Assembly: GCF_022045235.1 (NCBI RefSeq)
Contig: NW_027266286.1
Span: forward strand, 1,191,856 to 1,255,855
From: Haliotis cracherodii
Taxonomy: Eukaryota
DNA: 64,000 nucleotides
Direction of reading: 5' to 3'
Shown here: positions 163-45,995 of the stretch, one piece after another
Numbering within the stretch: the first letter of the stretch is position 1
Layout: every line of letters starts with the position of its first letter
Made by a program: the position numbers and the translations under genes
The notes under the pieces: model-generated
Database searches by the model: none
Seen by the model: only the letters and a program-made list of their open reading frames with translations
Told to the model about the DNA's origin: nothing

Positions 163-1218
163 CTGCAATCACAATAAATATAATGAACATTATTTCAGTT
201 ATATGTGAGAGAAAAGCCCAAAGTCTTGCAGGTCAAGGTTGTACAAAACAACCTTGACTTGGTCGATGCATGTCATTGTATCCCAATTGGGTGGATCAAT
301 GCTCATGCTGTCAATCACTAGATTTTCTGGTCCAGACTTGATTATTTACAGACCGCTGCCATACAGCTGAATTATTGCTTAGTGCGGCGTTAAACAACAA
401 AGAAATAAACAAATAGCACTGTGACTGTAGTAAGTCTGTGTTAAGGTAGGTAAGTGCTAAGATCGCTTTGTACAACAGCACCCTGGCATTTATGTAAAGG
501 ATAAAACATAACACTGAGGTTTTGCTTGAACATGTAAACCAAAAACATTAGGTTACATTTCAAAACATATCAACATAGATACTCTATTCATATAGTTTAT
601 ATATATGAGAGAGGTGCCATTGCCGCGAGACGATCTATTTATGGAGTCATGTCATGTTGCTTGTGTGTTTTAACGAGTCAGCAAATAGTTTATCTGTTAT
701 AAAATTGGTTTAGCTACACCATCTGTTCAATTTCGGAGCCCAAACAATTCATGGCAAAAGATTGCATCGGTTGAAGTGAGACGACATTTTTGCAACTGTC
801 TACTTGGTCCAAGGGGTGCTACTTTCATGTACAACACGAAGTTCAATGTGATAAGTAGGAGCAGCGATGACTGTAGTGATGATCTTTTGAATGTGTTGTT
901 CATTAGTGATGCTCGAACCTTAATAATTCCACGACACTTGCGCTACGAAGTGATATTCAGTATACTATCTCTATTCCAAACGTATTTGTTCTCGAGTCCT
1001 GTGATAGGCAACTGCAATAACTCACAGACTTGACTTGGCAAGTAAAATAGGTGAATAGTACAGTTTTGAGATGCATGTGTATATGTATCTCTGGTGTTTT
1101 TGTGAAACGTAGTCATGAGGAGACGTTGCCGAGCACAGTGGCACAGTGATACTGACGACCAGGTGCATTAAAAAATAGTTGTGTTTAAAAAAACTGTATT
1201 GTTATTAAATGAGTGGAC

Positions 1219-3249: not shown

Positions 3250-4075
3250 CTGCCCGTCCGTAATCATTTAGTTTCCAGAGCATAACTCGAAAACCTGTCA
3301 ATATCTTTCAACAAAACTTGGCAGGTATATCAAACAGATCTTGAACTGGTTCCTTTTGCTATTTTTGGACTTTTGGCGTTTTTATTTTCCACGCTTTCCT
3401 TGGAAACAATTTGTATTTAGTCTCTTTAGGGGTAGTTTTCGTTTCCGGAGCATAACCCGAAAACATTTCAATATCCTTCAACAAAACTTGGCAGATATAT
3501 CAAACAGATCCTGAAGTGGTGCCTTTTGCTATTTGCAGATATTTTGCATTTCTATTTTTCTCCATTTCCATGGAAACAATTTTGACTTACTCTCAAAATG
3601 TGGATTTCATTTCTGGAGCACAACTTAAAATCCTTGAAAGACTATACATCCAAACCTGGTACATGTATTAACCAAGGGCTGAAGTGCTGCATCCAAACCT
3701 GGTACATGTATTAACCAAGGGCTGAAGTGCTGCATCCAAACCTGGTACATGTATTAACCAAGGGCTGAAGTGCTGCATCCAAACCTGGTACATGTATTAA
3801 CCAAGGGCTGAAGTGCTGTGTTTTGCTCTATAGGAATTTTTCCAAATTACATTTGTCCCTGTGTCCATGGAAACAAGTTCGACTTAGCTGAAAGGAGGTA
3901 GGTGTTGTTTTCTGAGCAGAGCTAGATAAACTAGTCAACCTTTCTCATCAAAACTTGGTACATGTATTAATCAGGGGCTGAAGTGCTGCCTCTTGCTATT
4001 TAGGAATTTTCTTTTAAATATTTTTTGTCTGTTGTTGTCTGGCAACAAGCTTGATTTGACTCTGTTTCTATGGGT
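3250..4075. repeat. About 175-bp higher-order tandem repeat (about 4.5 units) with an embedded 42-bp sub-array at 3640-3830
   Basis: Recurring ..tcaacaaaacttggYaNRtatatYaaNcagRtc..gctatttNcagRWWttt..ccatggaaacaaKtt.. blocks. Four exact 42-bp copies of atccaaacctggtacatgtattaaccaagggctgaagtgctgc. Confidence 0.7.
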
Positions 4076-4412: not shown

Positions 4413-4555
4413 CTGCAAATATAAAACACATTAATGAGCCTTTGTAGCTGAAAGATAGGCTTTGTATAGTGACTCTATCTTACTTGAATGTGCATCTCAA
4501 ATTATCAATGCCCACCTTGCCAAATTGACAAAGTATGAAATAGTGTATCAGTTGT

Positions 4556-6630
4556 CCACAATGGCTCCTCAGTCTCAACAAAATCCCTGGGGTACGTTCA
4601 ACAAAGTGATCGCCGCTCTAAGGTGATCGTAACTCCTATACTTTAACATAGACTTCAGACAGTCGTAGCACTAAGGTGATTGTAACTCCCATACTTAAAC
4701 ATAGACTTCAGACAGTCGTAGCACTAAGGTGATCGTAACTCCCATACTTTAACATTGACTTCAGACAGTCGTAGCACTAAGGTGATCGTAACTCCCATAC
4801 TTTAACATTGACTTCAGACAGTCGTAGCACTAAGGTGATCGTAACTCCCATACTTTAACATAGACTTCAGACAGTCGTAGCACTAAGGTGATCGTAACTC
4901 CTATACTTTAACATTGACTTCAGACAGTCGTAGCACTAAGGTGATCGTAACTCCTATACTTTAACATTGACTTCAGACAGTCGTAGCACTAAGGTGATCG
5001 TAACTCCTATACTTTAACATAGACTTACGACAGCCATAGCGCTAAGGTAATCGTAACTCCTATACTTGAATATAGACTTACGACTGTCATAGCACTAAGG
5101 TGATCGTAACTCCTATACTTTAACATAGACTTCAGACATTCGTAGCACTAAGGTGATCGTAACTTTTATACTTGAATATAGACTTACGACTGTCATAGCA
5201 CTAAGGTGATCGTTACTCCTATACATTAACATATACTTCAGACAGTCGTAGCGCTAAGGTGATCGTAACTCCTATACTTTAACATAGACTTCAGACAGTC
5301 GTAGCGCTAAGGTGATCGTAACTCCTATACTTTAACATAGACTTCAGACAGTCGTAGCGCTAAGGTGATCGTAACTCCTATACTTTAACATAGACTTACG
5401 ACAATGGTAGTGCTTAGGCGATCGTAACTCCTATACTTTAACATAGACTTACGACAGTCGTAGCACTAAGGTGATCGTAACTCCTATACTTTAACATAGA
5501 CTTACGACAGCCATAGCGCTAAGGTAATCGTAACTCCTATACTTGAATATAGACTTACGACTGTCATAGCACTAAGGTGATCGTAACTCCTATACTTTAA
5601 CATAGACTTCAGACAGTCGTAGCACTAAGGTGATCGTAACTTTTATACTTGAATATAGACTTAAGACTGTCATAGCACTAAGGTGATCGTAACTCCTATA
5701 CATTAACATATACTTCAGACAGTCGTAGCGCTAAGGTGATCGTAACTCCTATACTTTAACATAGACTTCAGACAGTCGTAGCGCTAAGGTGATCGTAACT
5801 CCTATACTTTAACATAGACTTCAGACAGTCGTAGCGCTAAGGTGATCGTAACTCCTATACTTTAACATAGACTTCAGACAGTCGTAGCGCTAAGGTGATC
5901 GTAACTCCTATACTTTAACATAGACTTCAGACAGTCGTAGCGCTAAGGTGATCGTAACTCCTATACTTTAACATAGACTTACGACAATGGTAGCGCTTAG
6001 GCGATCGTAACTCCTATACTTTAACATAGACTTACGACAGTCGTAGCACTAAGGCGATCGTAACTCCTATACTTTAACATAGACTTACGACAGTCGTAGC
6101 ACTAAGGTGATCGTAACTCCTATACTTTAACATAGACTTACGACAGCCATAGCGCTAAGGTAATCGTAACTCCTATACTTGAATATAGACTTACGACTGT
6201 CATAGCACTAAGGTGATCGTAACTCCTATACTTTAACATAGACTTCAGACAGTCGTAGCACTAAGGTGATCGTAACTTTTATACTTGAATATAGACTTAC
6301 GACTGTCATAGCACTAAGGTGATCGTAACTCCTATACATTAACATATACTTCAGACAGTCGTAGCGCTAAGGTGATCGAAACTCCTATACTTTAACATAG
6401 ACTTCAGACAGTCGTAGCGCTAAGGTGATCGTAACTCCTATACTTTAACATTGACTTCAGACAGTCGTAGCGCTAAGGTGATCGTAACTCCTATACTTTA
6501 ACATAGACTTACGACAATGGTAGCGCTAAGGCGATCGTAACTCCTATACTTTAACATGGACATACGACTGTCGTAGCGCTAAGGTGATCGTAACTCCTAT
6601 ACTTTAACATAGACTTACAACAATGGTAGC
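4556..6630. repeat. About 60-bp tandem array (about 33 units) derived from the core of a palindromic MITE-like element (termini gggtRcgttcaacaaagYga..tcgctttgttgaacgggaccc)
   Basis: Unit tcgtagcRctaaggtgatcgtaactcctatactttaacatagacttcagacag. Solo copies of the palindromic element lie at 47757-47875, 50989-51096 and about 420-495. In intron 3 of the minus-strand gene. Confidence 0.8.
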
Positions 6631-6810
6631 CCTATGTTTGCTTTGGGGAACAGGTCCCAGATACAGTTGTGGTTCACCCCTGCCATGATGCATCTATTCT
6701 TGTCTGTTTTTAAAACTTGGTCCACTGAAACTTGCCTCAGTCATAAAGATGTAACAAATAATGTTTTGGTTGAAAACTTTAGCCAGTTCTAGAGCTGTTC
6801 AATCTGAGCA

Positions 6811-6982
6811 GGGGTGGTCTGGTAGCCTAGTGGTTAAAGCATTTGCTCACCACGCCGAAGACCCGAGTTCGATTCCCGACATCGGTACAATGTGTAAAGT
6901 CTATTTCTGGTGTCCCCCGCCGTAATAATTCTGGAATATTGCTAAAAGCTGCGTAAAATCCTACTCGTTCACTCACTCAATC
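6811..6982 (+). mobile_element. SINE family A copy
   Basis: ggtggtctggtagcctagtggttaaagc..cgagttcgattcccgac..ggtacaatgtgtaaag..ttctggtgtcccccgcc..attgctaaaagctgcgtaaaatcc..actcactcaatc. Confidence 0.6.
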
Positions 6983-9129: not shown

Positions 9130-10735
9130 TGTATATTTGCGTTGATGTTATAGTAATAATAGTGGGATGTTACAGAAGTAATAGTGGGATGTTACAGTAA
9201 AAATAGTGGGATGTAACAGTAGTAATAGTGGGATGTTACAGTAGTAATAGTGGGATGTTACAGTAATAATAGTGGGATGTTACAGTAGTAATAGTGGGAT
9301 GTTACAGTAATAATAGTGGGATGTTACAGTAGTAATAGTGGGATGTTACAGTAATAATAGTGGGATGTTACAGTAGTAATAGTGGGATGTAACAGTAATA
9401 ATAGTGGGATGTTACAGTAATAATAGTGGGATGTTACAGTAGTAATAGTGGGATGTTACAGTAGTAATAGTGGGATGTTACAGTAGTAATAGTGGGATGT
9501 AACAGTAATAATAGTGGGATGTTACAGTAGTAATAGTAGGATGTTACAGTAATGAGTGAGTGAGTTTGGTTTTACGCCGCTTTTAGCAATATTCCAGCAA
9601 ATATCACGGCGGGGGACACCAGAAATGGGTTTCACACATTGTACCCATGTCGGGAATCGAACCCGGGTCTTCGGCGTGACGAGCGAACGCTTTAACCACT
9701 AGGCTACCCGACCGCCCCGGATGTTACAGTAGTAATAGTGGGATGTTACAGTAGTAATAGTAGGATGTTACAGTAATAATAGTGGGATGTTACAGTAGTA
9801 ATAGTGGGATGTTAAAGTAGTAATAGTGGGATGTTACAGTAGTAATAGTAGGTTGTTACAGTAATAACAGTGGGATGTTACAGTAGTAATAGTGGGATGT
9901 TACAGTAAAAATAGTGGGATGTTACAGTAAAAATAGTGGGATGTTACAGTAATAACAGTGGGATGTTACAGTAGTAATAGTGGGATGTTACAGTAGTAAT
10001 AGTAGGATGTAACAGTAATAATAGTGGGATGTTACAGTAGTAATAGTAGGATGTTACAGTAATAACAGTGGGATGTTACAGTAGTAATAGTGGGATGTTA
10101 CAGTAGTAATGGTGGGATGTAACAGTAATAATAGTGGGATGTTACAGTAGTAATAATAGGATGTTACAGTAATAACAGTGGGATGTTACAGTAGTAATAG
10201 TGGGATGTTACAGTAGTAATAGTAGGATGTAACAGTAATAATAGTGGGATGTTACAGTAGTAATAGTAGGATGTTACAGTAGTAATAGATGGATGTTACA
10301 GTAGTAATAGTAGGATGATACAGTAATAATAGTGGGATGTTACAGTAGTAATAGTGGGATATTAAAGTAGTAATAGTGGGATGTTACAGTAGTAATAGTA
10401 GGATGTTACAGTAATAACAGTGGGATGTTACAGTAGTAATAGTGGGATGTTACAGTAGTAATAGTAGGATGTAACAGTAATAATAGTGGGATGTTACAGT
10501 AGTAATAATAGGATGTTACAGTAGTAATAGTGGGATGTTACAGTAGTAATAGTAGGATGATACAGTAATAATAGTGGGATGTTACAGTAGTAATAGTGGG
10601 ATGTTACAGTAGTAATAGTGGGATGTTACAGTAGTAATAGTAGGATGTTACAGTAATAACAGTGGGATGTTACAGTAGTAATAGTGGGATGTTACAGTAG
10701 TAATAGTGGGATGTAACAGTAATAATAGTCAGGTG
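9130..10735. repeat. 22-bp minisatellite agtaatagtgggatgttacagt (about 65 units, interrupted by a SINE at 9554-9718), abutting the exon 2 donor of the minus-strand gene
   Basis: On the minus strand the first unit after GCAG|gtaacacctgactattatt is actgtaacatcccactattact, i.e. a copy of the donor region. Confidence 0.85.
9554..9718 (-). mobile_element. SINE family A copy inserted inside the 22-bp minisatellite
   Basis: Reverse complement of the family-A consensus. Array units flank both sides (..gatgttacagtaat| and |gatgttacagtagtaat). Confidence 0.6.
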
Positions 10736-11456: not shown

Positions 11457-11606
11457 CGGGGCGGTCAGGTAACCTAGTGGTTTAAGCGTTCATTCATCAC
11501 GCCAAGACCCGGGTACGATTCCCATTTCTGGTGTCCCCCCTGCCGTGATATTGCTCGAATATTGCCAAAAGCGTCATAAAACCATATTTACTCACTCACT
11601 CACTCT
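11457..11606 (+). mobile_element. SINE family A copy (internal deletion)
   Basis: gggcggtcaggtaacctagtggtttaagcg..ttctggtgtcccccctgccgtgatattgc..aaaagcgtcataaaacc..(actc)n. Confidence 0.55.
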
Positions 11607-12677: not shown

Positions 12678-13212
12678 GCCTGTGTGGTCTAGTGGTAGAG
12701 CGTCCGCCCTGACAGCAGAAGGTCTGGGGTTTGATCCCCGGCTGCGTCATACCATAAGACGTTAAAAGATGGTACTTGTTGTTACCCTGTCTGGGGCTCG
12801 GGAATTAAAGGGCTAAAAACAAGGACTGGTCGGCTCGGAGTCAGTATACTGTGTCTGAGTGGGATATTCATGTTAAACTGTGGCATGGTATCTCAGTGGG
12901 CTAGCACTATAAATCGGCATCAGTCCGGACTAGTACAAGCAGCCACACACACACATACATGCATATCACTATTTAAGTGGGGGCGGTCGGGTAGCCTAGT
13001 GATTAAAGCGTTCGCTCGTCACGCCAATGACCCGGGTTCGATTCCCGACATGGGTACAATGTGTGAAGCCCATTTCTTGTGTCCCCCGCCGTGATATTGC
13101 TGGAATATTGCTAAAAGCCGCGTAAAACCATACTCACTCACTCACTCACTATTTAAGTGCAATAATCTTGGACGCGATGTTTAACCCCACTTCACCTCAC
13201 CTCACTACACAT
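12678..13212 (+). mobile_element. SINE family C (tRNA-derived head ggtctagtggtagagc..ggtttgatcccc, about 300 bp body, (CA)n, 3' cacctcacctcac) with SINE-A nested at 12980-13150
   Basis: Same element occurs at 1219-1514(+) and 32722-33052(-). The tRNA-like acceptor stem does not pair, so this is a SINE and not a tRNA gene. Confidence 0.6.
12980..13150 (+). mobile_element. SINE family A (tRNA-like head gggcggtcgggtagcctagtggttaaagcg..gggttcgattccc; tail ttgctaaaagcggcgtaaaacc + (ACTC)n) with 13-bp TSD cactatttaagtg
   Basis: Direct repeats cactatttaagtg at 12967-12979 and 13147-13159 flank the insert. The interrupted sequence is contiguous in the other SINE-C copy (..tataaatgcaataatcttg..). Confidence 0.7.
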
Positions 13213-13476: not shown

Positions 13477-13634
13477 GGGCAGTCAGGTAGCCTAGTGGTT
13501 TAAGCGTTCACTCGTCACGCCGAAGACCAGACATGGGTACAATGTGTGAAGCCCATTTCTGGTGTCCCCCATCGGGATATTGCTGGAATATTGCTAAAGG
13601 CAGTGTCAAATCATATTCACTCACTCACTAACTC
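13477..13634 (+). mobile_element. SINE family A copy
   Basis: gggcagtcaggtagcctagtggtttaagcg..ggtacaatgtgtgaagcccatttctggtgtccccc..ttgctaaaggcagtgtcaaatc..cactcactcactaactc. Confidence 0.55.
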
Positions 13635-15830: not shown

Positions 15831-15849
15831 AGATTTAAGTCGTACATGC

Positions 15850-17780
15850 AAAGCTGTGTCAGACACTCCCTCACTCACTCCACCACAACAATATGGAGGA
15901 GAGTATGCAATGCTGTGTCAGACACTCACTCACTCAACCACAACAATATAGAGGAGAGTATGCAATGCTGTGTCTGACACTCACTCACTCACTCCACCAC
16001 AACAATATGGAGGAGAGTATGCAATGCTGTGTCAGACGGCACTCTCACTCCACCACAACAATATGGAGGAGAGTATGCAATGCTGTGTCAGACACTCACT
16101 CACTCACTCAACCACAACAATATGGAGGAGAGTATGCAATGCTGTGTCAGACACTCACTCACTCACTCAACCACAACAATATGGAGGAGAGTATGCAATG
16201 CTGTGTCAGACACTCACTCACTCACTCCACAACAACAATATGGAGGAGAGTATGCAATGCTGTGTCAGACACTCACTCACTCACTCCACCACAAAATATA
16301 TGGAGGAGAGTATGCAATACTGTGTCAGACACTCACTCACTCACTCCACCACAACAATATGGAGGAGAGTATGCAATGCTGTGTCAGACGGCACTCTCAC
16401 TCCACCACAACAATATGGAGGAGAGTATGCAATGCTGTGTCAGACACTCACTCACTCACTCAACCACAACAATATGGAGGAGAGTATGCAATGCTGTGTC
16501 AGACACTCACTCACTCACTCAACCACAACAATATGGAGGAGAGTATGCAATGCTGTGTCAGACACTCACTCACTCACTCCACAACAACAATATGGAGGAG
16601 AGTATGCAATGCTGTGTCAGACACTCACTCACTCACTCCACCACAAAATATATGGAGGAGAGTATGCAATACTGTGTCAGACACTCACTCACTCACTCAA
16701 CCACAACAATATGGAGGAGAGTATGCAATGCTGTGTCAGACACTCACTCACTCACTCATGACAATATAGAGGAGAGTATGCAATGCTTTATCAGACACTC
16801 ACTCACTCACTCCACCACAAAATATATGGAGGAGAGTATGCAATACTGTGTCAGACACTCACTCACTCACTCCACCACAACAATATGGAGGAGAGTATGC
16901 AATGCTGTGTCAGACACTCACTCACTCACTCATGACAATATAGAGGAGAGTATGCAATGCTTTATCAGACACTCACTCACTCACTCCACAACAATATGGA
17001 GGAGAGTATGCAATGCTTTATCAGACGCTCACTCACTCATGACAATATAGAGGAGAGTATGCAATGCTTTATCAGACACTCACTCACTCATTCCACAACA
17101 ATATGGAGGAGAGTATGCAATGCTGTGTCAGACACTCACTCACTCACTCATGACAATATAGAGAAGAGTATGCAATGCTTTATCAGACACTCACTCACTC
17201 ACTCCACAACAATATGGAGGAGAGTATGCAATGCTTTATCAGACGCTCACTCACTCATGACAATATAGAGGAGAGTATGCAATGCTTTATCAGACACTCA
17301 CTCACTCACTCCACAACAATATGGAGGAGAGTATGCAATGCTGTGTCAGACACTCACTCACTCATGACAATATGGAGGAGAGTATGCAATGCTTTATCAG
17401 ACACTCACTCACTCATGACAATATGGAGGAGAGTATGCAATGCTTTATCAGACACTCACTCACTCATGACAATATAGAGGAGAGTATGCAATGCTTTATC
17501 AGACACTCACTCACTCATGACAATATAGAGGAGAGTATGCAATGCTTTATCAGACGCTCACTCACTCATGACAATATGGAGAAGAGTATGCAATGCTTTA
17601 TCAGACACTCACTCACTCATGACAATATGGAGAAGAGTATGCAATGCTTTGTCAGACACTCACTCACTCATGACAATATAGAGGAGAGTATGCAATGCTT
17701 TATCAGACACTCACTCACTCATGCCAATATGGAGGAGAGTATGCAATGCTTTGTCAGACACTCACTCACTCATGACAATA
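15850..17780. repeat. About 57-60-bp minisatellite containing the SINE-tail motif (cactcactcac)+ccacaacaatatggaggagagtatgcaatgctgtgtcagacact
   Basis: About 33 units. ORFs 15893..17050 etc. are periodic artefacts. Confidence 0.8.
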
Positions 17781-18999
17781 TGGAGGAAACACTATGTCAT
17801 TCATACACCCAGTCACTCTTTGATACAATCACTCATGCTGTCATTCGTTCATTCACCCGTTCGTTCATGCATTCATTAATTCATTCACATAACCCTTCAC
17901 TCATACTTCAACTTGATCACTCTTTCCCCAAGTCATTGAATCACTGTATTTTGTCACTGACTGAATTGTTTTGAGACAGTGACCGTGGCGTTGTAGTGGA
18001 GGAGATGGTGGTATCAGTGCAGCATGTATGTCTTCCTGATCAGTCGACATCGAGACCGTGGCACCTAACACACAAGGAACAAACAGGGTTGCGGCCTCCT
18101 AACAACCACTGCAGATTGTTGCAAGGCATATTCCGTGTTGACCCAGGAAGTCAATGTCCTTGTGCACAATGGGTTATCATAATAACTACAAACATCCTGA
18201 ACACAATGTGAGTGTTTAGATTGAGGACATGATAAACAACTTTGACAGCTTTCATAGAAAAGGATGATGTTTCTATTGTTGAGTGACGTGATGACATGTT
18301 GTTGCTGCAATGACATCCTCATTAATCCAGGTTGTTATATCTCCACTCAATCTTGATAAAAAAAACCTGGACATTCTCTACCAATACCCAGTTGCCTCTT
18401 ACAACACTGTTTTTTCAATCATTTCTGTGAATTTGAGAAAATTGTGACTATAATGTATTCCTGTGCCACTTCATTGTTGATGTTCATGCTATCAACCACT
18501 GGTTTGTTTACTTCAACCCGGCAAATATTGAACATCAGGGAGTCCTTTCAACTCATGACAAGCTGACAGTTTCCTCCTCACGACAACTTGATAAACAGAC
18601 TTGTTATCTGGGTGGGATGTTCCTGTGATGGCCTTGGTGGCGATTGTGGTAGAAGACGGGCGTATTTCTGTGTTCACCAGGACGTGTATTTATTTGCTCA
18701 CTGAAAATCCTTATGCTGATCATGACCTAACTCCTACAATCATGTTAATTATTTAATCAATTTATTAAAATGTGCATCTGGTGTGCACAATGACTGAACG
18801 CAGAAAAAGAATATGCTGTGTCCTGAGGGACCACAATAATACTCATTGTACCCACAGCGCATGAAGAACAGTTGTTGGTGTCTGTTATTTCATCCCTCAA
18901 TCAATCAATTATCTAAACATACAGCACACTACACCATTTCATTACTTTACAGGACATCCAAATTGCCAACAAGGACCCTTAAAATGAGGGTAGGTGGGG

Positions 19000-19153
19000 T
19001 AGGCTAGTTGTTAAAGTGTTCGCTTATCACGCCGAAGATCCAGGTTCAATTCCCCACATAAATACAATGTTTGAAGCCCATTTCTGGTGTCTCGTGCCAT
19101 GATATTGCTGGAATATTTCTAAAAGGAGCATAAAACAATACTCCCTCACTCAC
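19000..19153 (+). mobile_element. SINE family A copy (diverged) immediately upstream of the 48-bp array
   Basis: ggtaggctagttgttaaagtg..ccaggttcaattcccc..aatgtttgaagcccatttctggtgtc..attgctggaatatttctaaaagga..ctcactcacc. Confidence 0.5.
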
Positions 19154-23689: not shown

Positions 23690-24125
23690 TCCTGTATGTC
23701 CTAGAGATGCTCTCCTGTATGTCCTAGAGATGCTCTCCCATATGTCCTAGAGATGCTCTCCCATACGTCCTAGAGATGCTCTCCTGTATGTCTTAGAGAT
23801 GCTCTCCTGTACGTCCTAGAGATGCGCTCCCATATGTTCTAGAGATGCTTTACTATATGTCTTAGAGATGCTCTCCTGTACGTCCTAGAGATGCTCTCCC
23901 ATATGTTCTAGAGATACTATCCTGTACATCCTAGAGATGCTCTCCTATATGTCCTAGAGATGCTCTGCCATACGTCCTAGAGATACTCTCCTGTACATCC
24001 TAGAGATGCTCTCCTGTATGTCCTAGATATGCTCTCCTGTATGTCCTAGATATGCTCTCCTGTACATCCTAGAGATGCTCTCCTGTATGTCCTAGAGATG
24101 CTCTCCTGTATGTCCTAGATATGTA
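23690..24125. repeat. 23-bp minisatellite ctagagatgctctcctgtatgtc (about 19 units), ending about 60 bp before the exon B acceptor
   Basis: Tandem copies visible. Confidence 0.85.
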
Positions 24126-24187
24126 TGACAGTGATACAGCTATCCACATACTCTGTGTTCATGTTAAGACGATGTGTGTGTTTCCAG

Positions 24188-24322
24188 GACAACCGCAGCA
24201 TCACGCCGCTGACCCTCGGCCGCATCTCCTCCTACTACTACCTCAACCACAACACTGTGCGCATGTTCTGTAACGAACTCAAGGCTGAGTCGACACTGCC
24301 AGAACTCTTGGACATCTTGTCT
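24188..24322 (+). CDS. SNRNP200: SNRNP200 exon; DNRSITPLTLGRISSYYYLNHNTVRMFCNELKAESTLPELLDILS
   Basis: Acceptor tgtgtgtttccag|gac, donor TCT|gtaagt, 45 codons in phase 0. Matches human [43 protein letters not shown]. Confidence 0.88.
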
Positions 24323-25390
24323 GTAAGTCCAGGTCTACACTGAAACCTCCATAATCCACACCTTGTCAGTCCAGACCTTGCTAATCTGGACCTTGCCAGT
24401 ACTTCATACCCATGTTCAGAGATCTTGTACCCGAAACACTGTCACTGGTGCACCGTCATCCTATATTAAACACTCAGTCGATATTTAGAGTGAAATGATT
24501 ATTAAATGGGTTCCCACTCGCTGGCAGTGTGGGTTCGAATCCCGGATGGGACTCAGCCCAAAGAAGCTCTAGAATCTGTACTTTACTAAGAAAGTATATA
24601 ACATTTGTCACATTTGACCACTTTCTAAACCAGGCATTGTGTATCATAATATAAGTCTTGTAAAGAGGCAGCTCCACCCACTGTGATTATATACACATTA
24701 TCATAAATATCAAGGTCAATAGTTGATTACAAGGATTGGGACACAAAGAATATTCACCTTATTTTTATACCCCCGACAAAATGTCGGGGGTATATAGTTA
24801 TACCAAGGTTCCGTCCGTCCGTCTGTCCAAAAACTTTGTCCGCACGATTTCTCTTAAACTGTTCAGGGGATTAATCTCAAACTTAGTACATATAATCTGT
24901 GTCATATGGAGGGGTGCAGCCCAAAGAAAAAAAATTGTTTTTATTAATTTTCCATTTTTTTAAAGAATTTTTCAAACCCCAACAGCCGTCCGAAAACTTT
25001 GTCCTCGCAATTTCTCTTAAACTATTCAGGGGATTCATCTCAAACTTAATACATATAATCTGTGTCATATGAAGGGGTGCAGTCCAAAGAAAAACATTTT
25101 TTTAAATTAATTTTCCATTTTGTTTATGAATTTTTCAAACCCTAGGCTAACCCTATCCTAGCTATTTGATTTGTAACTACTGACACACTAGGCGGGTTGG
25201 GGGTATTAGTGAGCCATGCTCACTTTTGCACTTGTTAGTAGCAGAATTAGCAACAAAGAAAGACTTATATGATCTCACAACTGACTTTGTGACCTTCTTT
25301 AGAATTGCCTCCCTAGATTGGTGCAGCTGGATCAGAATAACATGTTCTTGTTTGGAGCAGTGATGTCCCATTTTTTCTGTTAATTCCCAG

Positions 25391-25446: not shown

Positions 25447-25785
25447 GTAGGTGGCTTGTTTTCAGTCATCTGACATCTTTTTGAAAACTACACGGCCAGT
25501 GGAGCTGAAACGTGAGGCTGTGAAAAGAATGTGAGTTAAGATGTCTTTGACTTTGTTGAACAAGGCCCAGTTCTTCAGGTATGTCAGGAGTGTTGTCAGT
25601 CAGCTCGATGTGCAGGAAGAACCAGGTCTTAGACGTTTGTCACTTGGTGTCACCTGCTGGTATGGTTTTGACGCTGACAAATACAATCATTATCAGGACG
25701 ACTCTGGCACTTAACCCATGATTATCGGACTGCACTGCACAGCAAATGAGGCACTGATTGTTATGTTTGTTATGTTTCCTGGTAG

Positions 25786-25959: not shown

Positions 25960-28900
25960 TCACCTCAACCTCCCCTCAACCCCATCAAAGCCCTCAACTT
26001 CCCACAACCCCCCTCAACTTCCCACAAACCCCACAACTTCCCACAACTCTCCTCAATCCCCCTCAACCTCCCCTCAACCCCCTTTAACTCCCCTCAATCC
26101 CCCCTCAAGTCCCCTCAACTCCCCATAATTCCCCTCAACTCCTCATAACTCAACTCAACCTCCCCCCCACCCCCGTCAAACCAACACCCCTCAACCCCAC
26201 AACTCCCTTAGTCCCTGAATCCCTGAATCCCCTTCTCAACCAGCTCACACTTCTTACACACAACCTAAAATCCCTCAGACCCTTCAACACCACTCAAACA
26301 CCCTCACACAACCTCAAACAGCTCAAACTCACACCCCACAAGCCCCTACCCCTCACCCATCTCATCTCTCAGTGATGGACCAAGCCACCCTAGCACACCC
26401 TAGCACATCCCAACACACCCCAGCACACCCCAGCACACCCTAGCATGCCCTAGCACATTAGCACACCCTAGCACACCATAGCACACCCCAGTACACCCTA
26501 TCATGCCCTAGCACACCCTAGCACACCCCAGCACACCCTAGCATGCCCTAGCATGCCCTAGTACACCCTAGCACACCCTAGCATGCCCTAGTACACCCTA
26601 GCACACCCTAGCACACCCTAGTACACCCCAGTACACCCTAGCACACCCCAGTACACCCTAGCATGCCCTAGTACACCCTAGCACACCCTAGCACACCCTA
26701 GCACACCCCAGTACACCCTAGCATGCCCTAGTACACCCTAGCACACCCTAGCACACCCTAGCATGCCCTAGCACACCCTAGCACACCCCAGTACACCCTA
26801 GCACACCCTAGCACGCCCTAGCACACCCTAGCATGCCCTAGCACACCCTAGCACACCCCAGTACACCCTAGCATGCCCTAGTACACCCTAGCACACCCTA
26901 GTACACCCTAGCATGCCCTAGCATGCCCTAGCACACCCTAGCATGCCCTAGTACACCCTAGCACACCCTAGTACACCCTAGCATGCCCTAGCACACCCTA
27001 GCACACCCCAGTACACCCTAGCATGCCCTAGCACACTCCAGTACACCCTAGCATGCCCTAGCACACCCCAGCACACCCCAGTACACCCTAGCACACCCTA
27101 GCATGCCCTAGCACACCCCAGTACACCCTAGCATGCCCTAGTACACCCTAGCACACCCTAGCACACCCCAGTACACCCTAGCATGCCCTAGTACACCCTA
27201 GCACACCCTAGCACACCCCAGTACACCCTAGCATGCCCTAGTACACCCTAGCACACCCCAGTACACCCTAGCACACCCCAGTACACCCTAGCATGCCCTA
27301 GTACACCCTAGCACACCCTAGCACACCCTAGTACACCCTAGCACACCCTAGCACACCCTAGCATGCCCTAGTACACCCTAGCACACCCCAGTACACCCTA
27401 GCATGCCCTAGTACACCCTAGCACACCCTAGCACACCCTAGCACACCCTAGTACACCCCAGTACACCCTAGCACACCCCAGTACACCCTAGCATGCCCTA
27501 GTACACCCTAGCACACCCTAGCATGCCCTAGCACACCCTAGCACACCCAGGCACACTCCAGTACACCCTAGCATGCCCTAGTACACCCTAGCACACCCTA
27601 GCACACCCTAGCACACCCTAGTACACCCCAGTACACCCTAGCACACCCCAGTACACCCTAGCATGCCCTAGTACACCCTAGCACACCCTAGCACACCCTA
27701 GCATGCCCTAGCACACCCTAGCACACTCCAGTACACCCTAGCATGCCCTAGCACACCGTAGCACACTCCAGTACACCCTAGCACACCCTAGCACACCCTA
27801 GCATGCCCTAGCACACCCTAGCACACCCCAGTACACCCTAGCACACCCTAGCACGCCCTAGCACACCCTAGCATGCCCTAGCACACCCTAGCACACCCCA
27901 GTACACCCTAGCATGCCCTAGTACACCCTAGCACACCCTAGTACACCCTAGCATGCCCTAGCACACCCTAGCATGCCCTAGTACACCCTAGCACACCCTA
28001 GCACACCCTAGTACACCCTAGCATGCCCTAGCACACCCTAGCACACCCCAGTACACCCTAGCATGCCCTAGCACACTCCAGTACACCCTAGCATGCCCTA
28101 GCACACTCCAGTACACCCTAGCATGCCCTAGCACACCCCAGCACACCCCAGTACACCCTAGCACACCCTAGCATGCCCTAGCACACCCTAGCACACCCCA
28201 GCACACTCCAGCACACCCTAGCACACCCCAGTACACCCTAGCACACCCTAGCACGCCCTAGCACACCCTAGCACACCCCAGTACACCCTAGCATGCCCTA
28301 GCACACCCTAGCACACCCCAGTACACCCTAGCATGCCCTAGCACACCCCAGCACACCCCAGTACACCCTAGCATGCCCTAGCACACCCCAGTACACCCTA
28401 GCATGTCCTAGCACACCCTAGCACACCCCAGCACACCCCAGTACACCCTAGCACACCCCAGTACACCCTAGCATGTCCTAGCACACCCTAGCACACCCCA
28501 GCACACCCCAGTACACCCTAGCACACCCTAGCATGCCCTAGCACACCCTAGCACACCCCAGTACACCCTAGCATGCCCTAGCACACCCTAGCACACCCTA
28601 GCATGCCCTAGCACACCCCAGTACACCCCAGTACACCCTAGCACACCCTAGCATGCCCTAGCACACCCTAGCACACCCCAGTACACCCCAGTACACCCTA
28701 GCATGCCCTAGCACACCCTAGCACACCCCAGTACACCCTAGCACACCCTAGCATGTCCTAGCACACTCTAGCACACCCTAGCACGTCCCAGTACACCCTA
28801 GCACACCCTAGCATGTCCTAGCATGCCCTAGCACACCCTAGCACACCCCAGCACACTCCAGCACGCCCTAGCACACCCTAGCACACCCCAGCACACCCCA

Positions 28901-28990
28901 GCACACCCTAGCACACCCCAGCACACTCCAGCACGCCCTAGCACACCCTAGCACACCCCAGCACACTCCAGTACACCCTAGCAGACTCCA
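25960..28990. repeat. Degenerate (cccctcaaY)n tract, then a 2.6 kb array of 10-bp cctagcacac variants (cctagtacac, cctagcatgc), in the SNRNP200 D-E intron
   Basis: Visible periodicity at 26340-28990. ORFs 25718..26128 and 28868..29101 are artefacts. Confidence 0.85.
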
Positions 28991-29809
28991 GCACGCCCAT
29001 TCCCACTCCACCCACTCTCCACTCCACAACCATTTCTTTCCCTGAGAACCATGTTCAACAAGTGTAGCTCCTTCCAGGCATGTGACACCTTCGGTACACA
29101 CTCGGTATCATCGCTGCCACCAGTGTGGGCGCGGCCATTACAAAAATCTTGAAATTTGGCCTCTAACCCCAAATGTAGTAAAGTTTATACTTTTGTTAAT
29201 GTCTTTGGGAATGCCATCACAGTTAATTTTGAAAAGGTTTACGACTGATCATATTTCCCAGATGAATTTACATTTTTGTTTGATTGATCGGATTGGTTCG
29301 AGATTGCAGACAAACAGAAATTCAACCAACTTCCCCCTTAATATAACAAATGTTATATTTGGGATAACACTTTCTTTGTATAGTACAGATTCTCGTACTT
29401 GTTTAGGTTGAGTTCCACCCACACATGCCAGAGTGAGGCACCTTATCGCCAGCACACAAAGCCACCAATCTAACCCACTCAGCCACCGAGGCTTCCACAA
29501 AATGAAAGTCCAACAACTGGTAGTCTAGATCACGTACTTTGTGTACCCCTCTGAACAAATTTCTGTGCAAATTGGCACAGCTCCCATGGCCGAAAGCTAT
29601 GAATACTCATTGCATTTAGAAAGTGGTCAAATGTACATTCTTATTTTACCAGTTACATGATAGTTGTAATGAAAATAGAAATTCAAACTGGGAAACAAAG
29701 AAAATAATTAAGCTGGGGTAAGAGTATTCAGCGTCACGGCAGTCATCAATTGTTTCTAAACATAACTGTCAGTCGACTGCGAGTTCAACACCAAGCATGG
29801 TTGTAGCCA

Positions 29810-33938: not shown

Positions 33939-34325
33939 TTATTTCACACCATTTAATTTTGGTTTGAAAGTATTACTAAAATAAATTTCTTTTATCTTTC
34001 TCAGTGCATCATTGTCACATTTGTAAAACGGGAATATCACAAAATGTGGTGTTTTATTCCCGGCACACTGACTGAGTGGGATACACCAACAAGAGAGGTC
34101 CCTTATTTGTTGTCGGTGGACCCTCACTCTCGCTCTTAGGGTGTTCCCTGTCTGTCCAATGTATTCGGCCTTGCATCCAGCACATTGTAGGACATAAATC
34201 AAGTTTTTCGAAGCACAATTCATATTTTCATGGACATAGAAAGTTTTTCCGTCTTTGAATGTAAAAGAACAACATTGTAAAACATGAGGGCAAGTACCAC
34301 GATTTGGTCTGTTACACTTTTGCAC
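33939..34325 (-). pseudogene. GIY-YIG nuclease domain ORF fragment (..CPHVLQCC..KTFYVHENMNCASKNLIYVLQCAGCKAEYIGQTGNTLRARVRVHRQQI..)
   Basis: Conserved spacing of the GIY..YIG..R..H motif, with an upstream Cys cluster as in Penelope-like endonuclease domains. Upstream ORF pieces (34891..35139, 35155..35403) are in different frames. Confidence 0.55.
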
Positions 34326-36619
34326 TGTTTTACATTCTTGTTTTCCATTTGAGAAAGAAGCCCTAGTAAGAATCTGTTTCAGATTTTGACTGTCATTTAC
34401 TTTTAATAAGTTTATTTTGTGATATTTTTTGTTTTAGTTCTTTACACTTATTTAAGGAATACAGTGATTCCCGAACACTTCGAAATATTTTGGGGAGTTT
34501 TGGGGATTAAAGGTTGTAACAAAAGGGAGAACACTCTCGTTAGGTTTATCTTTAGGTTTTAAAAGATCACAACGGTTTTGTGATTTAGCCTTGTTTATTG
34601 CGTCTTCCACTATTTTTCTAGGGTAGTTTCTTTCTAATAGTGATTCCCTCAGTTCATCGAGTTTGTGTTGTGCACTATTGTGCAGATTTTACGTGCTAAT
34701 GAGTAAGGGACATTGTTTATGGTTTGGGCTTCTTTGGCGACCTTGGCCTTGCTGTCTCCCCTGGTTGGAAGATCTGCCTTCAGTGATGTTGATTGTTCAG
34801 GGGGGGTCTTCATCCCCGGGACGTTGTACTTCTTCTGAATGTACAGTTCTGTGTTGGAGGACCTCTGAGAGTCAGTTTCACAGAATGTGATTAGGGTGGT
34901 TTTATTTTTGTCACGTCAGCATAAGATTTCCCCTCAGTTCTTAGATTTTTTAGGAAGTGATTTTCTTCTTTTGAGTTGACGTTTAAGGTATAGATTGTAT
35001 GCCGTTTCTTGTTTTTCTCTAATCGCTTGTTAGATATTTCTTCTTCAATCTGACATACTCTTTCCCATTCTTTCTGCAACAATTCAAGTACTTTTCCCTT
35101 TGTTGTTTTCACAAGTTCTTCAATGATTTCTGCATTCATTTCTTTGAATTTCAGTTAATGGGACTCCACACGCAGTCGTAAAAGTTCAATTACACTTTTC
35201 ATGGAATCTATGGCATGTTTTTCTCTAAGGACACGCTGTGTGTCGGGTTCCCCCTTCATAGGCTTGATTTGGAATTTAGGAGGTATGATCCGTTTTGCCC
35301 CTAAGAGCCATTTTAGATACATGTCTGCTAGATTGGAATTGTTTAAATAACCCCAGTATGCTTGTTTCCATTTCGTTAGAATGGAACTGCGTACTTGATT
35401 CATGGATACTTGTATCTCAGATGCTTTTCTTTCTGTTATTATTTTTACTGAGTCTTCAATAAGGTTTGCTTGAAGAATGGCTTCATTAGCCGAGACATAA
35501 GTGTGAAGCTAATTAAAGGTCTTCATTGATGAAATAATAATAATGTTCTGTACAGTATTCAAATATCAAGTGGTGTGCAAGTCCATGCGCGGCTACATGT
35601 ATTTTCATGGTTGTTTACACGACGGCCTTTATGCACTGTGAACTTCATTTCAATGCAACATTCAATAATGCAACTATTACTAACAATGGATTGCAACGAC
35701 AGATCAAGTTTGAAAAGAGCTTGGTATCAAACAAACTGTGACATTAACATTATGAGGTCGGCCCGCGAGAAACACCTGGTTGTATTCGCCAACTTGAGTA
35801 CAGCAGTGGCCCTCTGTATTTCTACCCAAGATGATCTGCCACAAGCTGACTTCTGGAATACATGTTACGCTCTGCATTCAACACGGGTAAAAGTCATTCG
35901 TTGCTGATGTGAATTTGATGATTGTTCAAGTACTGTACTATTTTCCGCATATGCAGATTGCAGATTGAAGTTATCACTTCGATCACTGCTTCATGTGTAG
36001 GTTGGTGTCTGGTGCAGTTGTTAGGCTTTCGGGAATGTTATCGTCTAACCCCCTCAGCCACTGAGGCTAGTCATGAAAAATAATTAAATGTGAGAGAATG
36101 TGTCTTGTACCATAGATCTATATTTATTCACTTCTCAACGGTCTCTCTCACGCCCCCGCAAAATATGCGCAACAATGTAATATCCTGTGACACTATCTGT
36201 GATCAGCAACAAACAAATCCTGTGAAGTTTTGTCTTACTCATGTCTGCTATATTTTCTTTAGACATTTAGTGTACAGAAAATGTTCTATTACTGCATTAC
36301 CAATCGGGTAACAATTTGAATAATTATAAAACATTTACACCTTATTCGGATGATTTTACATGTGTGGACACAATGTATTTGAAACATGATAACATTTCAT
36401 TAAATATGTTCTGGCAAAACATTTCTGCAACGTGCTGAAAACATTGTAACAACATGTTATGAAATAGTTTTGACTATGTTATAGCATCATGTTCTTCAAC
36501 AACATTTTGAAAATATTTCAATAACATTTTGAATACATTTATAACACATTAATAAAATGTTTTGACAAAAATCGTTTTGAAAAACTACAATGAAACCTTT
36601 TGAAATTGTTTTGAAAATG

Positions 36620-37355: not shown

Positions 37356-38195
37356 GTGAGTCCTGTACTACATCAAGTAGCCCAGTGGCGTAGACGTCCA
37401 TTATGGAGCAGATGAAGATGTCAAATACATCGTCATGAACATGCTTTTGTCAGCATCAGCCTGTTCATTGAGACATGTTCATTGAGACATGTTCATTGAG
37501 ACACTGGGAGAAGCTGCCTCCACAGGGTTCCTTGTCAAAATCTGTTATTCCAACAGATGCTGTAAATCTTGAAATTATTGCATCTCCAAATTAATACGAC
37601 TGCTGACCCCTAGCAAAAAATGCGACTCTAAATCAATGCGACTCCTCCAACCCCATTCCCATGATACATACATATTTACCTTAATCCAATCAAACGGCAA
37701 ACAGCAAACAGCACTGTATAGAGCACTTCCATAAAACAATAAACACTGTTTTCCTAAAAACAACACACAGTTTATATGTTTACTCTGTTGACTGGCATTA
37801 AAGAAGTTCAAAGGCCATAAAATAATTGAACCAACAGTTCACTGATTGATATGCGGAGACGGTGTTAATCAGCTTGACACGAGTGGATACAACTCTTGAC
37901 CCCAGCACTGATAACTCACCAGATGCCTGTTGTTTAATTCCTATTCTTTGAATGACATTGTTTGGACTTGTTACAACTGCTGCTCAATAAACAGTGTTTG
38001 CGTATATATTCAAGTCGGAATTTCCACTATCCAAATTAACTATGCGAAGTTAATTAATGGGAGCAAAAACCACATTTTTTTAAAATTAATTCACGCTCGC
38101 GTTAATTTCAAGATTTACAGTAACTGATAATGTTGGACAGCGTAAAACCCAACTAACTCACTCTCTCATTAAAAGCCAATAATTTGTTACTTCAG

Positions 38196-38519
38196 AAATA
38201 CGACACCAAGGCCCACAGTCCACGGTTCCCGAAGCCGAAGGACGAAGGCTGGATGCTGGTTGTGGGCGAGGTGGAGACCAAGGAACTCATCGCCCTCAAG
38301 CGGATGGGGTACGTGCGGAGTCGCTCCAAGGCCCAGCTCGCTCTGTACACCCCGGAGACGGTGGGGCGTGTCATCTACACCCTCTACCTGATGAGCGACG
38401 CCTACCTTGGTCTTGACCAGCAATACGACATCTGTCTGGACGTTGTGCCATCCAGCATCGAGACACAGGTCAACACGGAGCTCAAGGAGGAACTAGATGG
38501 GCTTGATTTTGATAGCTGA
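38196..38519 (+). CDS. SNRNP200: SNRNP200 terminal coding exon; KYDTKAHSPRFPKPKDEGWMLVVGEVETKELIALKRMGYVRSRSKAQLALYTPETVGRVIYTLYLMSDAYLGLDQQYDICLDVVPSSIETQVNTELKEELDGLDFDS*
   Basis: Acceptor ttgttacttcag|aaa; TGA stop at 38517-38519. Matches the human C-terminus [51 protein letters not shown]. 3'UTR follows; a candidate AATAAA sits at 39038-39043 (low confidence). Confidence 0.9.
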   Translation, partial: KYDTKAHSPRFPKPKDEGWMLVVGEVETKELIALKRMGYVRSRSKAQLALYTPETVGRVIYTLYLMSDAYLGLDQQYDICLDVVPSSIETQVNTELKEELDGLDFDS

Positions 38520-45892: not shown

Positions 45893-45995
45893 CTTGCTTG
45901 TTTGTTGTTTAACACCGCACTCGGCAATATTCCAGCTATATGACGGTGGTCTGTAAATAATCGAGTCTGGGCCAGACAATCCAGTGATTGACTAC
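45893..45995 (-). mobile_element. SINE-like family D (core ..gcggacttgtagtcaatcactggattgtctggcccagactcgattatttacagaccaccgtcatat.. + shared tail module)
   Basis: Copies at about 290-415(+) and 46760-46880(-); the last is continuous with the 54-bp array. Shares the ..ctggaatattgcYaaRagcggYgttaaac tail with families A and B. Confidence 0.4.

Follow-up and report, generated by a model that had tools for sequence, protein, structure and literature searches.

Positions 4587-6660 of the window (the whole 64-kb stretch of DNA that was analysed) hold one complete element, consisting of a left arm, an array of 38 units and a decayed right arm. We think it likely that this element is a single MITE insertion whose core multiplied in situ to form a non-coding minisatellite of 2 kb. 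The evidence comes from four copies of the family and one orphan arm, all of which lie within the 64-kb window and have unrelated flanks. The earlier note had described a MITE-like element of about 110 bp with an expanded internal core, and this description is borne out by the homology of the array units to the cores of the solo copies; moreover, the units align to the solos and the solos have inverted termini, the two points on which that note had staked its reading.

Anatomy of the expanded element and its relatives

Both TRF and in-register dissection indicate that the tandem array of about 2 kb noted at this locus is real. In particular, TRF reported a repeat at 4618-6616 with a period of 53, 37.7 copies, 91% matches and 0% indels (score 3130), and in-register cutting gave 38 units across the array with zero indels, so that the previous figure of about 33 repeats was an undercount. 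The consensus of the unit is CTAAGGTGATCGTAACTCCTATACTTTAACATAGACTTCAGACAGTCGTAGCA; each unit comprises the central core together with 2-3 nt from the arm, and all strong unit matches in a profile search fell on one strand. There are 21 distinct unit types, which follow one another in the order ABCCDEE/FGHIJKKLM/FGANOKKKKPMQ/FGAIORSPTU. The last unit directly adjoins the right arm, with no microsatellite between them. Since the mean identity between units (90%) is no higher than the identity between the array consensus and solo copy A (89%), the array is not simply young.

Borders of the array were searched with an arm profile that was trained on the solo arms alone, the arms of the array being excluded from training. 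Across the whole window, the best match outside the training set was the orphan arm (25570-25550, E 0.0065), and the second- and third-best were the two borders of the array, in inverted orientation. The left arm was matched at 4589-4611 on the plus strand (E 0.03), and the right arm at 6660-6633 on the minus strand (E 0.27 window-wide); the latter match sits exactly on the array border in the orientation expected. Because both borders were matched in inverted orientation, the array is bounded by both arms. Consistent with this, a profile of the full element matched 4587-4672 at model positions 1-86 (E 1.8e-23), and a second match at 6574-6659 reached model position 112 of 113. The left arm can be aligned with the remaining arms of the family, and the right arm is supported by both the element alignment and the arm alignment. 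Thus, the array does begin with a left end, as previously claimed, and a decayed right arm had been missed. (Note that the outer CTG at 4587-4589 may be either the tip of the arm or a 3-bp target-site duplication.)

The solo copies that had been noted exist, as found with blastn, at coordinates slightly different from those first given (Table 1); one of them is truncated. With blastn the array matched solo A at 90% identity over 60 bp (E 1e-17) and solo B at 82% over 50 bp (E 1e-6), solo A matched solo B at 81% over 83 bp (E 1e-12), and the truncated copy matched solo A at 86% over 35 bp (E 2e-5). When the array consensus was aligned to the solo cores, 47 of 53 positions agreed for A and 42 of 53 for B, and the array element, once collapsed, aligned colinearly with the solo copies. 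The right arm of solo B is intact (GCTTTGTTGAACGGGACCCTG) and was also found as an exact pattern match at 51084-51104. The arm of the truncated copy was matched by the solo-arm profile at 485-456 (E 5e-7). The second arm of this copy has been replaced by an unrelated interspersed repeat at 308-415, of which another copy lies at 45908-45992; in alignment, the interspersed repeat stops where the core of the truncated copy begins. The orphan arm aligns with the other arms; it probably survives from a fifth copy or from a related family.

Table 1. Positions of the expanded element, its internal blocks and its relatives, in window coordinates.
Feature	Position	Strand	Sequence or evidence
Left terminal arm, expanded element	4587-4617	+	CTG-GGGTACGTTCAACAAAGTGATCGCCGCT
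Array, 38 head-to-tail 53-bp units in a single orientation	4618-6631	+	TRF, in-register dissection
Higher-order block copy 1, 9 units	4989-5465	+	Unit typing, lag analysis, block identity
Higher-order block copy 2, 12 units	5466-6101	+	Unit typing, lag analysis, block identity
Higher-order block copy 3, 10 units	6102-6631	+	Dissection, unit typing, lag analysis, block identity
Right terminal arm, expanded element, decayed	6632-6660	+	CTATGTTTGCTTTGGGGAACAGGTCC-CAG
Solo copy A, 112 bp, one core unit	47754-47865	- (opposite to array)	Both arms well preserved
Solo copy B, 111 bp, one core unit	50994-51104	+	blastn, nhmmer; left arm decayed
Truncated copy, one arm (456-485) and partial core	414-485	-	nhmmer 485-395, E 1.3e-10
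Orphan arm-like sequence	25545-25570	+	GACTTTGTTGAACAAGGCC-CAG

In the expanded copy all six reading frames are closed, the longest open stretch being 46 aa, and a protein-coding reading was rejected on this ground. A reading as functional RNA was likewise dropped, as Rfam at gathering thresholds placed no family in the element. (The sole Rfam matches in the window are two tRNA-like SINE heads elsewhere.) Exact-pattern scans of public metagenome contigs and of prokaryote genome contigs with the conserved core gave no matches. A 17-nt arm pattern gave 77 metagenome matches, which is about the number expected by chance for its length; none of these was accompanied by the element, and nhmmer returned a single marginal match among them (E 0.006).

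Inverted arms, target site and superfamily

Members of the family are about 111 bp long, with terminal inverted arms of about 30 nt (CWG-GGNCCNGTTCAACAAAGCGATCTTAGC) around a core of about 50 bp. An alignment of seven arms and the orphan arm yields the consensus CWGGGNCCNGTTCAACAAAGCGATCTTAGC, about 31 nt long, in agreement with the earlier proposal that the family has terminal inverted repeats. Within single copies, the complementarity of the two arms exceeded that of shuffled sequences in solo A only, where the score was 16 against a shuffle maximum of 11; solo B and the expanded copy did not rise above the shuffles because each has one decayed arm. The family shares with MITEs its terminal inverted repeats, small size (111-112 bp in the solos) and lack of coding capacity.

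Within offsets of up to 4 bp, no consistent target-site duplication (TSD) of 2-10 bp was found outside the CWG...CWG boundaries of the complete copies. The bases just outside the ends are TCC/ATA for the array, GTT/AGG for solo A and ACT/GTA for solo B. The hAT elements make an 8-bp TSD, Tc1/mariner elements TA, piggyBac elements TTAA and classic PIF/Harbinger elements TWA; no such duplication is present here, and all four were rejected. Nor did the flanks of the array, solo A and solo B yield an informative paralogous empty site within the window. (The flank of the truncated copy belongs to the repeat that replaces its second arm.)

All eight arm ends carry CWG, followed in seven of the eight by GGG, and the arms are about 28-31 nt long. 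This combination resembles NuwaI, a group in the PHIS (PIF/Harbinger-ISL2EU-Spy) superfamily with a CWG TSD and TIRs of 12-61 bp, in most cases beginning with GGG (Han et al. 2015, PMC4482050). NuwaI elements are restricted to animals, and four families are found in the oyster Crassostrea gigas (PMC4482050). Unlike in NuwaI, the CWG is identical on both sides in only one of the three complete copies: on the plus strand the pairs are CTG/CAG in the array, CAG/CAG in solo A and CAG/CTG in solo B. If the CWG is the TSD, just one of the three copies thus has the same central base at both ends, and mobilization by a known transposase is accordingly no more than presumed. A further difference from NuwaI is that the window holds no autonomous partner, that is, a DDE_Tnp_4 transposase with a Myb-like ORF; a Pfam scan of nine window ORFs gave no match to DDE_Tnp_4, and the sole transposon-related matches were a Tc1-type HTH and GIY-YIG. 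There is no arm-like sequence near the Tc1-like transposase fragment at 61219-61665. (A search with this fragment returned two matches.) Likened by its published signature rather than by TIR sequences, NuwaI, which is related to PIF/Harbinger, is the most likely superfamily for these elements, an assignment that we hold to have about an even chance of being correct.

Origin and growth of the array

In solo A, the best-preserved solo copy, the 8-bp direct repeat GCTAAGGT lies on both borders of the core, and the two copies are exactly 53 bp apart, which is the period of the array. By our own estimate, the chance of an exact 8-mer at that lag in 112 bp is about 52/4^8, or about 8e-4. (The exact repeat occurs in this one solo; it is degraded in solo B and at the right end of the array.) At each junction between units of the array, GC[A/G]CTAAGG is formed anew. 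The aligned arms share CTTAGC at their inner ends, so that inverted symmetry assigns the right-hand copy of GCTAAGGT to the arm, and this copy is therefore not just part of a second unit. The arrangement is like that of the Haber and Louis 1998 model, in which, as PMC6947457 sums it up, minisatellites are seeded by direct repeats of 5-10 bp that flank the future unit, with slippage or unequal crossing-over giving the first duplication and then expansion of the array; here the best-preserved solo has an 8-bp repeat one period apart. The model is general and was illustrated mainly by Alu and other retroelements, whereas the substrate here is a DNA-transposon MITE.

The array also has a higher-order structure. 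Lag analysis gave minima at 9, 12 and 21 units, and the sequence of unit types resolves three copies of a multi-unit block (Table 1). Block copies 1 and 2 are 99.2% identical, apart from one indel of 106 bp (2 units), and copies 1 and 3 are 97.9% identical (the third block identity is 97.4%), as against a mean of 90% between single units; that is, multi-unit blocks are more alike than the units that compose them, as in a higher-order array. The two final units of block copy 3 are the most divergent in the array. Three copies of a 9-12-unit block at 97-99% identity are the footprint of multi-unit unequal exchange and not of unit-by-unit slippage at a hairpin.

We propose that a one-unit element inserted, as suggested by the two arms that flank the array and by the single core in each of the three other copies, which is whole in the two solos and incomplete in the truncated one. 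Short direct repeats one period apart would then have misaligned, the inner end of the right arm (GCTAAGGT...) recurring at the start of the core, and a 53-bp tandem duplication could have followed by replication slippage or by unequal or microhomology-mediated repair between the repeats. We infer that GCTAAGGT caused this first duplication, which is better explained by the 8-bp direct repeat than by foldback slippage. Growth would have continued unit by unit, with divergence to about 90% identity, and a block of 9-12 units (477-636 bp) would recently have been amplified to three copies, presumably by unequal exchange between sister chromatids or homologues. Decay of the arms, most advanced in the right arm, would have come last, leaving an element that is probably immobilised and now behaves as an ordinary minisatellite.

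The direction of change in this scheme, from one unit to many, could in principle be reversed. The ancestral active element may already have been multi-unit, as in pearl/DTC84 and multi-motif miDNA4, in which case the one-unit solos would be products of collapse and the 38-unit copy an extension. Tandem units are easily lost by deletion between them, and an ordered form of such loss has been proposed for DTC84 (PMC3879986); solo A has GCTAAGGT on both sides of its single unit, as collapse would leave it, and divergence between units is as deep as that between the array consensus and solo A. However, the three other copies are about 20% apart and hold one unit or part of one, none of them two. 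Moreover, the right-hand GCTAAGG is derived from the arm by symmetry, which means that a one-unit element has the repeat without any former array, and the higher-order blocks show that recent, local additions account for the greater part of the array's length today. We thus regard an origin of the solos by collapse as unlikely.

The suggestion in the earlier note that the foldback structure could promote slippage, which as the main cause of expansion would mean that a hairpin stalls replication (as in the stem-loop models of Hikosaka and Kawahara and of Izsvak), fared less well. Stem-loop models of MITE-derived repeats are published (PMC12628747; PMC3879986). When solo A is folded as DNA, its arms pair into a strong hairpin (-21.5 kcal/mol, z -4.3; none of 200 shuffles was as stable), in keeping with that note, but solo B folds no better than shuffles (z +0.3). 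Near its 3' junction the ancestral-type unit also carries the palindrome ACGACAGTCGT, 11 nt long, and the core repeat of DTC84 has a palindrome there too (PMC3879986). The palindrome ACGACNGTCGT, however, is kept in only 4 of the 38 units, and the commonest unit type lacks it in intact form. It is only the arms that fold back: the 53-bp unit alone is not self-complementary and is no more structured than shuffles (z +0.3). In the expanded copy the arms pair poorly, with an arm-to-arm score of 8 against a shuffle mean of 6.1, and the collapsed element folds with a z of -2.0. Furthermore, the endpoints of the duplication coincide with a direct repeat rather than with an inverted repeat, and growth by blocks of 9-12 units is not what slippage unit by unit predicts. 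Expansion driven mainly by a hairpin is accordingly, in our judgment, quite improbable.

We entertained the idea that the family is an unconventional MITE in which the CWGGG...CCCWG tips are part of the element (two of the three copies have this pattern) and which inserts without a TSD, and that the array grew not by passive slippage or unequal exchange but through the family's own enzyme, acting on internal pseudo-ends by aberrant transposition or repair. Growth of this kind is conceivable because every unit junction recreates the inner end of an arm. A family of this sort would resemble the TSD-less Spy group in inserting without target duplication, but at a different target. We give this idea little credence. 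Least credible of all is an unrelated minisatellite that lies beside arm-like sequences, or monomers scattered in some other way, with no transposon origin: unrelated minisatellites do fill much of the window (47% of bases, and 28 arrays of at least 300 bp), no TSD was found and the right arm is weak when taken alone, but three other loci, whose flanks are unrelated, have the same arm-core-arm layout, the array borders in their correct orientations account for two of the three best arm matches outside the training set in 128 kb of searched sequence, and only this one of the 31 window arrays has dispersed single-unit relatives.

Genomic setting and comparison with known systems

The expanded element probably lies within an intron of an ASCC3-like gene, to judge from the position of two Sec63 exons. 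The C-terminal exon of this gene has relatives of at most 80% identity in the protein collection; no upstream helicase-like exon was recognized among window ORFs of at least 28 aa, which were read by eye. One further contig that was scanned lacks the element. Of note, none of the window arrays, the one at 4587-6660 included, passed a test for inverted repeats between an array's own flanks, a test that is insensitive to decayed arms.

A single 64-kb window thus holds the presumed one-unit progenitor form, a direct repeat spaced at the period, an expanded copy bracketed by its two decaying arms, and subsequent block-wise amplification. A process of this kind is usually pieced together from scattered evidence, and the locus offers a compact snapshot of it, in support of the idea that minisatellites and satellites are seeded by non-autonomous DNA transposons through ordinary microhomology and unequal exchange. 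For annotation, the array should be masked and classed as transposon-derived, and the arms are a useful probe for similar arrays in the genome.

Among the known systems, the MITE miDNA4 of Xenopus tropicalis (Scalvenzi and Pollet 2014) has a single motif in 61% of its copies and several in some, and flanking microhomologies are proposed to alter the number of internal repeats (PMC12628747; PMC12054243). Mutation is predicted to strip copies with long arrays of their inverted ends and so to turn them into plain satellite arrays; the element is assigned to Tc1/mariner, is AT-rich and 300-600 bp long, and its authors proposed the capture of a pre-existing repeat (PMC12628747; PMC9659126; PMC12054243). 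The family described here is similar in that three of four copies are single-core (one of them partial) and one has 38 units, that an 8-bp repeat flanks the unit, and that the arms of the expanded copy are decayed. It differs in that no TA adjoins any of the three complete copies, that the elements are about 111 bp long, and that the arm itself, through its inner end, supplies the direct repeat.

[quoted passage not shown] In elements of the pearl/DTC84 type the core repeats are about 160 bp long and number up to about 5, with a tetranucleotide microsatellite beside them, a conserved AA as putative TSD, and terminal or subterminal repeats of 10-20 bp (PMC3879986). Like these, the expanded copy has tandem cores between inverted-repeat flanks, and the solos have one unit. 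Unlike these, it has a 53-bp unit, no microsatellite, no AA flank, terminal arms of about 30 nt and 38 units.

In Tetris of Drosophila virilis and Xmix/Xstir of Xenopus laevis, the satellite repeats derive from the TIR, according to a table in PMC9659126. The likeness to these elements is that arrays arise from part of an inverted-repeat transposon, with element, composite and array forms coexisting in the genome (no free-standing array without arms was seen in the window). In the present family, by contrast, the unit is the core with 2-3 nt of arm, in direct orientation between the arms. The trait of foldback elements and Tetris, in which tandem repeats form the inverted arms, is likewise absent, all 38 units having one orientation and lying between the arms.

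The phenomenon as such is already well documented in miDNA4, Xstir and pearl/DTC84, and no new kind of system is revealed by this locus. If the NuwaI assignment is true, the family would add a possible case of the PIF/Harbinger type, flanked by CWG, beside the Tc1/mariner and Helentron-like ones.

Structure of the expanded element

An earlier note had placed at 4556-6630 a palindromic MITE-like element whose internal segment was repeated about 33 times behind one intact left end. TRF reports one array at 4618-6616 (period 53, 37.7 copies, 91% matches, no indels), and dividing the DNA from 4618 onwards into 53-bp segments yields 38 units, all in register, the last ending at 6631; the array therefore stands, and its unit count was too low. 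A full-element profile search found a single orientation common to all units, which rules out a foldback element with repetitive arms. A protein-coding reading is likewise out, as all six frames of the expanded element are closed (longest open stretch, 46 aa), and Rfam gave no match in the array region.

Using blastn with the array edges and the proposed solo copies as queries, we recovered three further loci: two single-core copies, solo A and solo B, and a truncated copy carrying an internal deletion (see the table). Alignment is colinear across all four copies. Compared with the array consensus, the core of solo A agrees at 47 of 53 positions and the solo B core at 42 of 53, so that the proposed homology between array units and solo elements holds. 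The inverted termini claimed for the solos are also present when aligned; seven arms and an orphan arm at 25545-25570 give the consensus CWG-GGNCCNGTTCAACAAAGCGATCTTAGC. Searching the whole window with the full-element profile gave no other convincing match, save a weak one at 25511-25570.

We then searched both strands of the whole window with an arm profile trained on the five solo arms and not on the array's own ends. Outside the training set it matched best at the orphan arm (E 0.0065), followed by 4589-4611 (+) (E 0.03) and 6660-6633 (-) (E 0.27). The latter two fall exactly at the borders of the array, in opposite orientations, as expected for two arms of one element. The right arm, missed in the earlier note, is weak when taken alone, but its position and orientation make a chance match very unlikely. 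With arms at both borders, the array is thus the interior of a single complete element, 4587-6660. Note that similar short motifs, ATCAGTTGTCCAC and ATACAGTTGTGGTTCAC, lie outside the two ends (4546-4560 and 6660-6677); they are too short to interpret and were not counted as a target-site duplication.

A second interspersed repeat adjoins the truncated copy and stands in place of its missing arm. The tail of this repeat, CGTTAAACAACAAAG, bears a faint likeness to the MITE arm, CGTTCAACAAAG, which may be due to chance.

Origin and growth of the array

We distinguish 21 types among the 38 units, arranged as ABCCDEE / FGHIJKKLM / FGANOKKKKPMQ / FGAIORSPTU. Whereas mean pairwise identity between units is 90%, mean differences fall at lags of 9, 12 and 21 units, and the blocks starting at 4989, 5466 and 6102 show pairwise identities of 99.2%, 97.9% and 97.4%, the sole length difference in the best pair being a 106-bp (two-unit) indel. 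The array has thus passed through at least two phases of growth: an older one of amplification at the level of units, which then diverged, and a recent one in which a higher-order block of 477-636 bp was triplicated. Such a block pattern is what unequal exchange of misaligned arrays classically leaves behind, and it would not be predicted from hairpin slippage acting one unit at a time.

Slippage promoted by a foldback structure had been suggested for the element. Folded as single-stranded DNA, solo A does give a long hairpin by pairing of its arms (-21.5 kcal/mol, z -4.3; more stable than each of 200 shuffles), but solo B, whose left arm has decayed, does not (z +0.3), and the array element, when reduced to a single unit, folds marginally (z -2.0). 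The 53-bp unit alone folds no better than shuffled sequence (z +0.3). Moreover, an 11-nt palindrome, ACGACAGTCGT, near the 3' end of the ancestral-type unit has been kept by only 4 of the 38 units, and the most frequent type has CAGAC where the palindrome has ACGAC. The description "palindromic" therefore applies to the arms and not to the amplified segment, and the unstructured unit together with block-wise growth speaks against foldback-driven slippage.

The first duplication may instead have been seeded by a direct repeat spaced one period (53 bp) apart. Solo A carries the octamer GCTAAGGT at position 30 and again at position 83, a spacing exactly equal to the array period; we estimate that chance would give an exact 8-mer at this one lag about 8e-4 times in a 112-bp sequence. 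The left-hand copy straddles the border between left arm and core, with two bases in the arm and six in the core. The right-hand one forms the inner end of the right arm; the mirror-image sequence CTTAGC is conserved where the arms meet the core, so this copy belongs to the basic design of the element and is not just a leftover second unit. Every junction in the array reads GC[A/G]/CTAAGG (slash at the junction), so that unit junctions fall within the direct repeat. Since the repeat is degraded in solo B and at the right end of the array, its putative ancestral status rests on solo A and arm symmetry. The same configuration is found in the Haber and Louis model of minisatellite birth, which, as outlined in PMC6947457, has the future unit flanked by direct repeats of 5-10 bp. 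The direct repeat at the core borders also matches the microhomologies that are proposed in PMC12628747 to change internal repeat number in the Xenopus MITE miDNA4. As the best mechanism we consider it likely that the direct repeat seeded a first duplication and that unequal exchange of whole blocks came next, within a MITE that was immobilised.

Genomic setting

The window (43.5% GC) looks eukaryotic. It holds SINEs of tRNA origin, remnants of Penelope-like and Tc1-like elements and, on the plus strand, two ASCC3-like helicase exons, whose best protein relatives are only about 80% identical. In the ASCC3/Brr2 family the Sec63 domain forms the C-terminal end of a long helicase, so that the exons preceding it have to lie 5' of 24 kb; between 1 and 24 kb no long coding ORF was seen. 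With the Sec63 exons downstream, the array is thus probably intronic in an ASCC3-like gene.

Tandem arrays make up about 47% of the window, and 28 of them span at least 300 bp, nearly all with unrelated units of 10-170 bp. This striking density of minisatellites seems to lie mostly inside introns of one gene. Only the 53-bp array, one of 31, has single-unit relatives elsewhere in the window; the transposon link is therefore specific to it and not shown as a window-wide property. The short repeat at 3647-3818 looks like a very young duplication.

Two SINE heads were called weak tRNAs by Rfam, at 9642-9713 (-) and 12985-13056 (+). One head falls within a stretch that TRF reports as a single 22-bp array. 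The GIY-YIG match suggests a fragment of a Penelope-like retroelement, and no MITE-arm-like sequence lies near either Tc1/mariner-like fragment.

Features of the window, by position and strand
Feature	Position	Strand	Remarks
Solo A	47754-47865	-	relative to array
Solo B	50994-51104	+	relative to array
Truncated MITE copy	~414-485	-	relative to array
Second interspersed repeat	308-415		ends ...GTGCGGCGTTAAACAACAAAGAAATAAACAAA; two copies 85% identical
Second interspersed repeat	45908-45992	-	
ASCC3-like exon	24119-24340	+	start of C-terminal Sec63 domain
ASCC3-like exon	38157-38516	+	end of C-terminal Sec63 domain
Tandem array	40906-45804		24 bp x 205
Tandem array	26386-28998		10 bp x ~260
Tandem array	15846-17772		59 bp x 35
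Tandem array	9144-10729		22 bp x 72
Tandem repeat	3647-3818		43 bp x four, 100% identity; adjoins 170-bp x 1.9 repeat (3267-3582) with shared sequence
tRNA-derived SINE	6811-6980		
SINE head	9669-9718	-	
SINE heads	11458-11506, 12980-13025, 13482-13525, 18988-19037, 46436-46474		
ORF run, weak GIY-YIG endonuclease domain	33942-35508	-	E 4e-4, just below Pfam cut-off
Tc1/mariner-like transposase fragment	61219-61665	-	Pfam HTH_Tnp_Tc3_2 match
Tc1/mariner-like transposase fragment	56709-56954	-	C-terminal-looking, judged by eye; no Pfam match

Superfamily signature and known systems

None of the three complete copies has a 2-10-bp duplication flanking its CWG...CWG boundaries, even with boundary shifts of up to 4 bp allowed, which excludes the usual signatures of hAT, Tc1/mariner, piggyBac and classic PIF/Harbinger as well as the AA signature of the pearl/DTC84 type. 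CWG precedes all eight arms, and GGG comes next in seven. A true target-site duplication carries the same trinucleotide on both sides, as solo A does (CAG/CAG); the array (CTG/CAG) and solo B (CAG/CTG), each with one heavily decayed arm, show the pattern expected if CWG were the tip of the inverted repeat. NuwaI, a group within the PHIS superfamily that is related to PIF/Harbinger, has been defined by target-site duplications of 5'-CWG-3', by TIRs of 12-61 bp that usually have GGG at the start and by animal hosts, including the oyster Crassostrea gigas with four families (Han et al. 2015, PMC4482050). Our element shares the CWG outside the arms and the GGG start, but a true CWG duplication is seen only in solo A among three complete copies, so the fit is suggestive, not decisive, and we rate NuwaI-type membership as about as likely as not.

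That tandem repeats can arise from transposons is well documented, and MITEs are an accepted source, examples being Xstir/Xmix and miDNA4 in Xenopus, pearl/CvA/DTC84 and BIV160 in bivalves, the Stowaway-derived D1100 in rye and MITE-linked satellites in Messor ants (PMC9659126; PMC6947457; PMC12628747; PMC3879986). The family described here is previously undescribed, the process is known, and the intermediates are unusually legible; the significance is modest, and a specialist in repetitive DNA would find nothing surprising. The element does not share the target-site duplication and microsatellite features that define the pearl group. Its closest functional analogue is miDNA4, which has one motif in most copies and arrays in some, with microhomologies flanking the motif and with the arms of long-array copies expected to decay (PMC12628747; PMC12054243); miDNA4 differs from our element in superfamily signature, size and unit.
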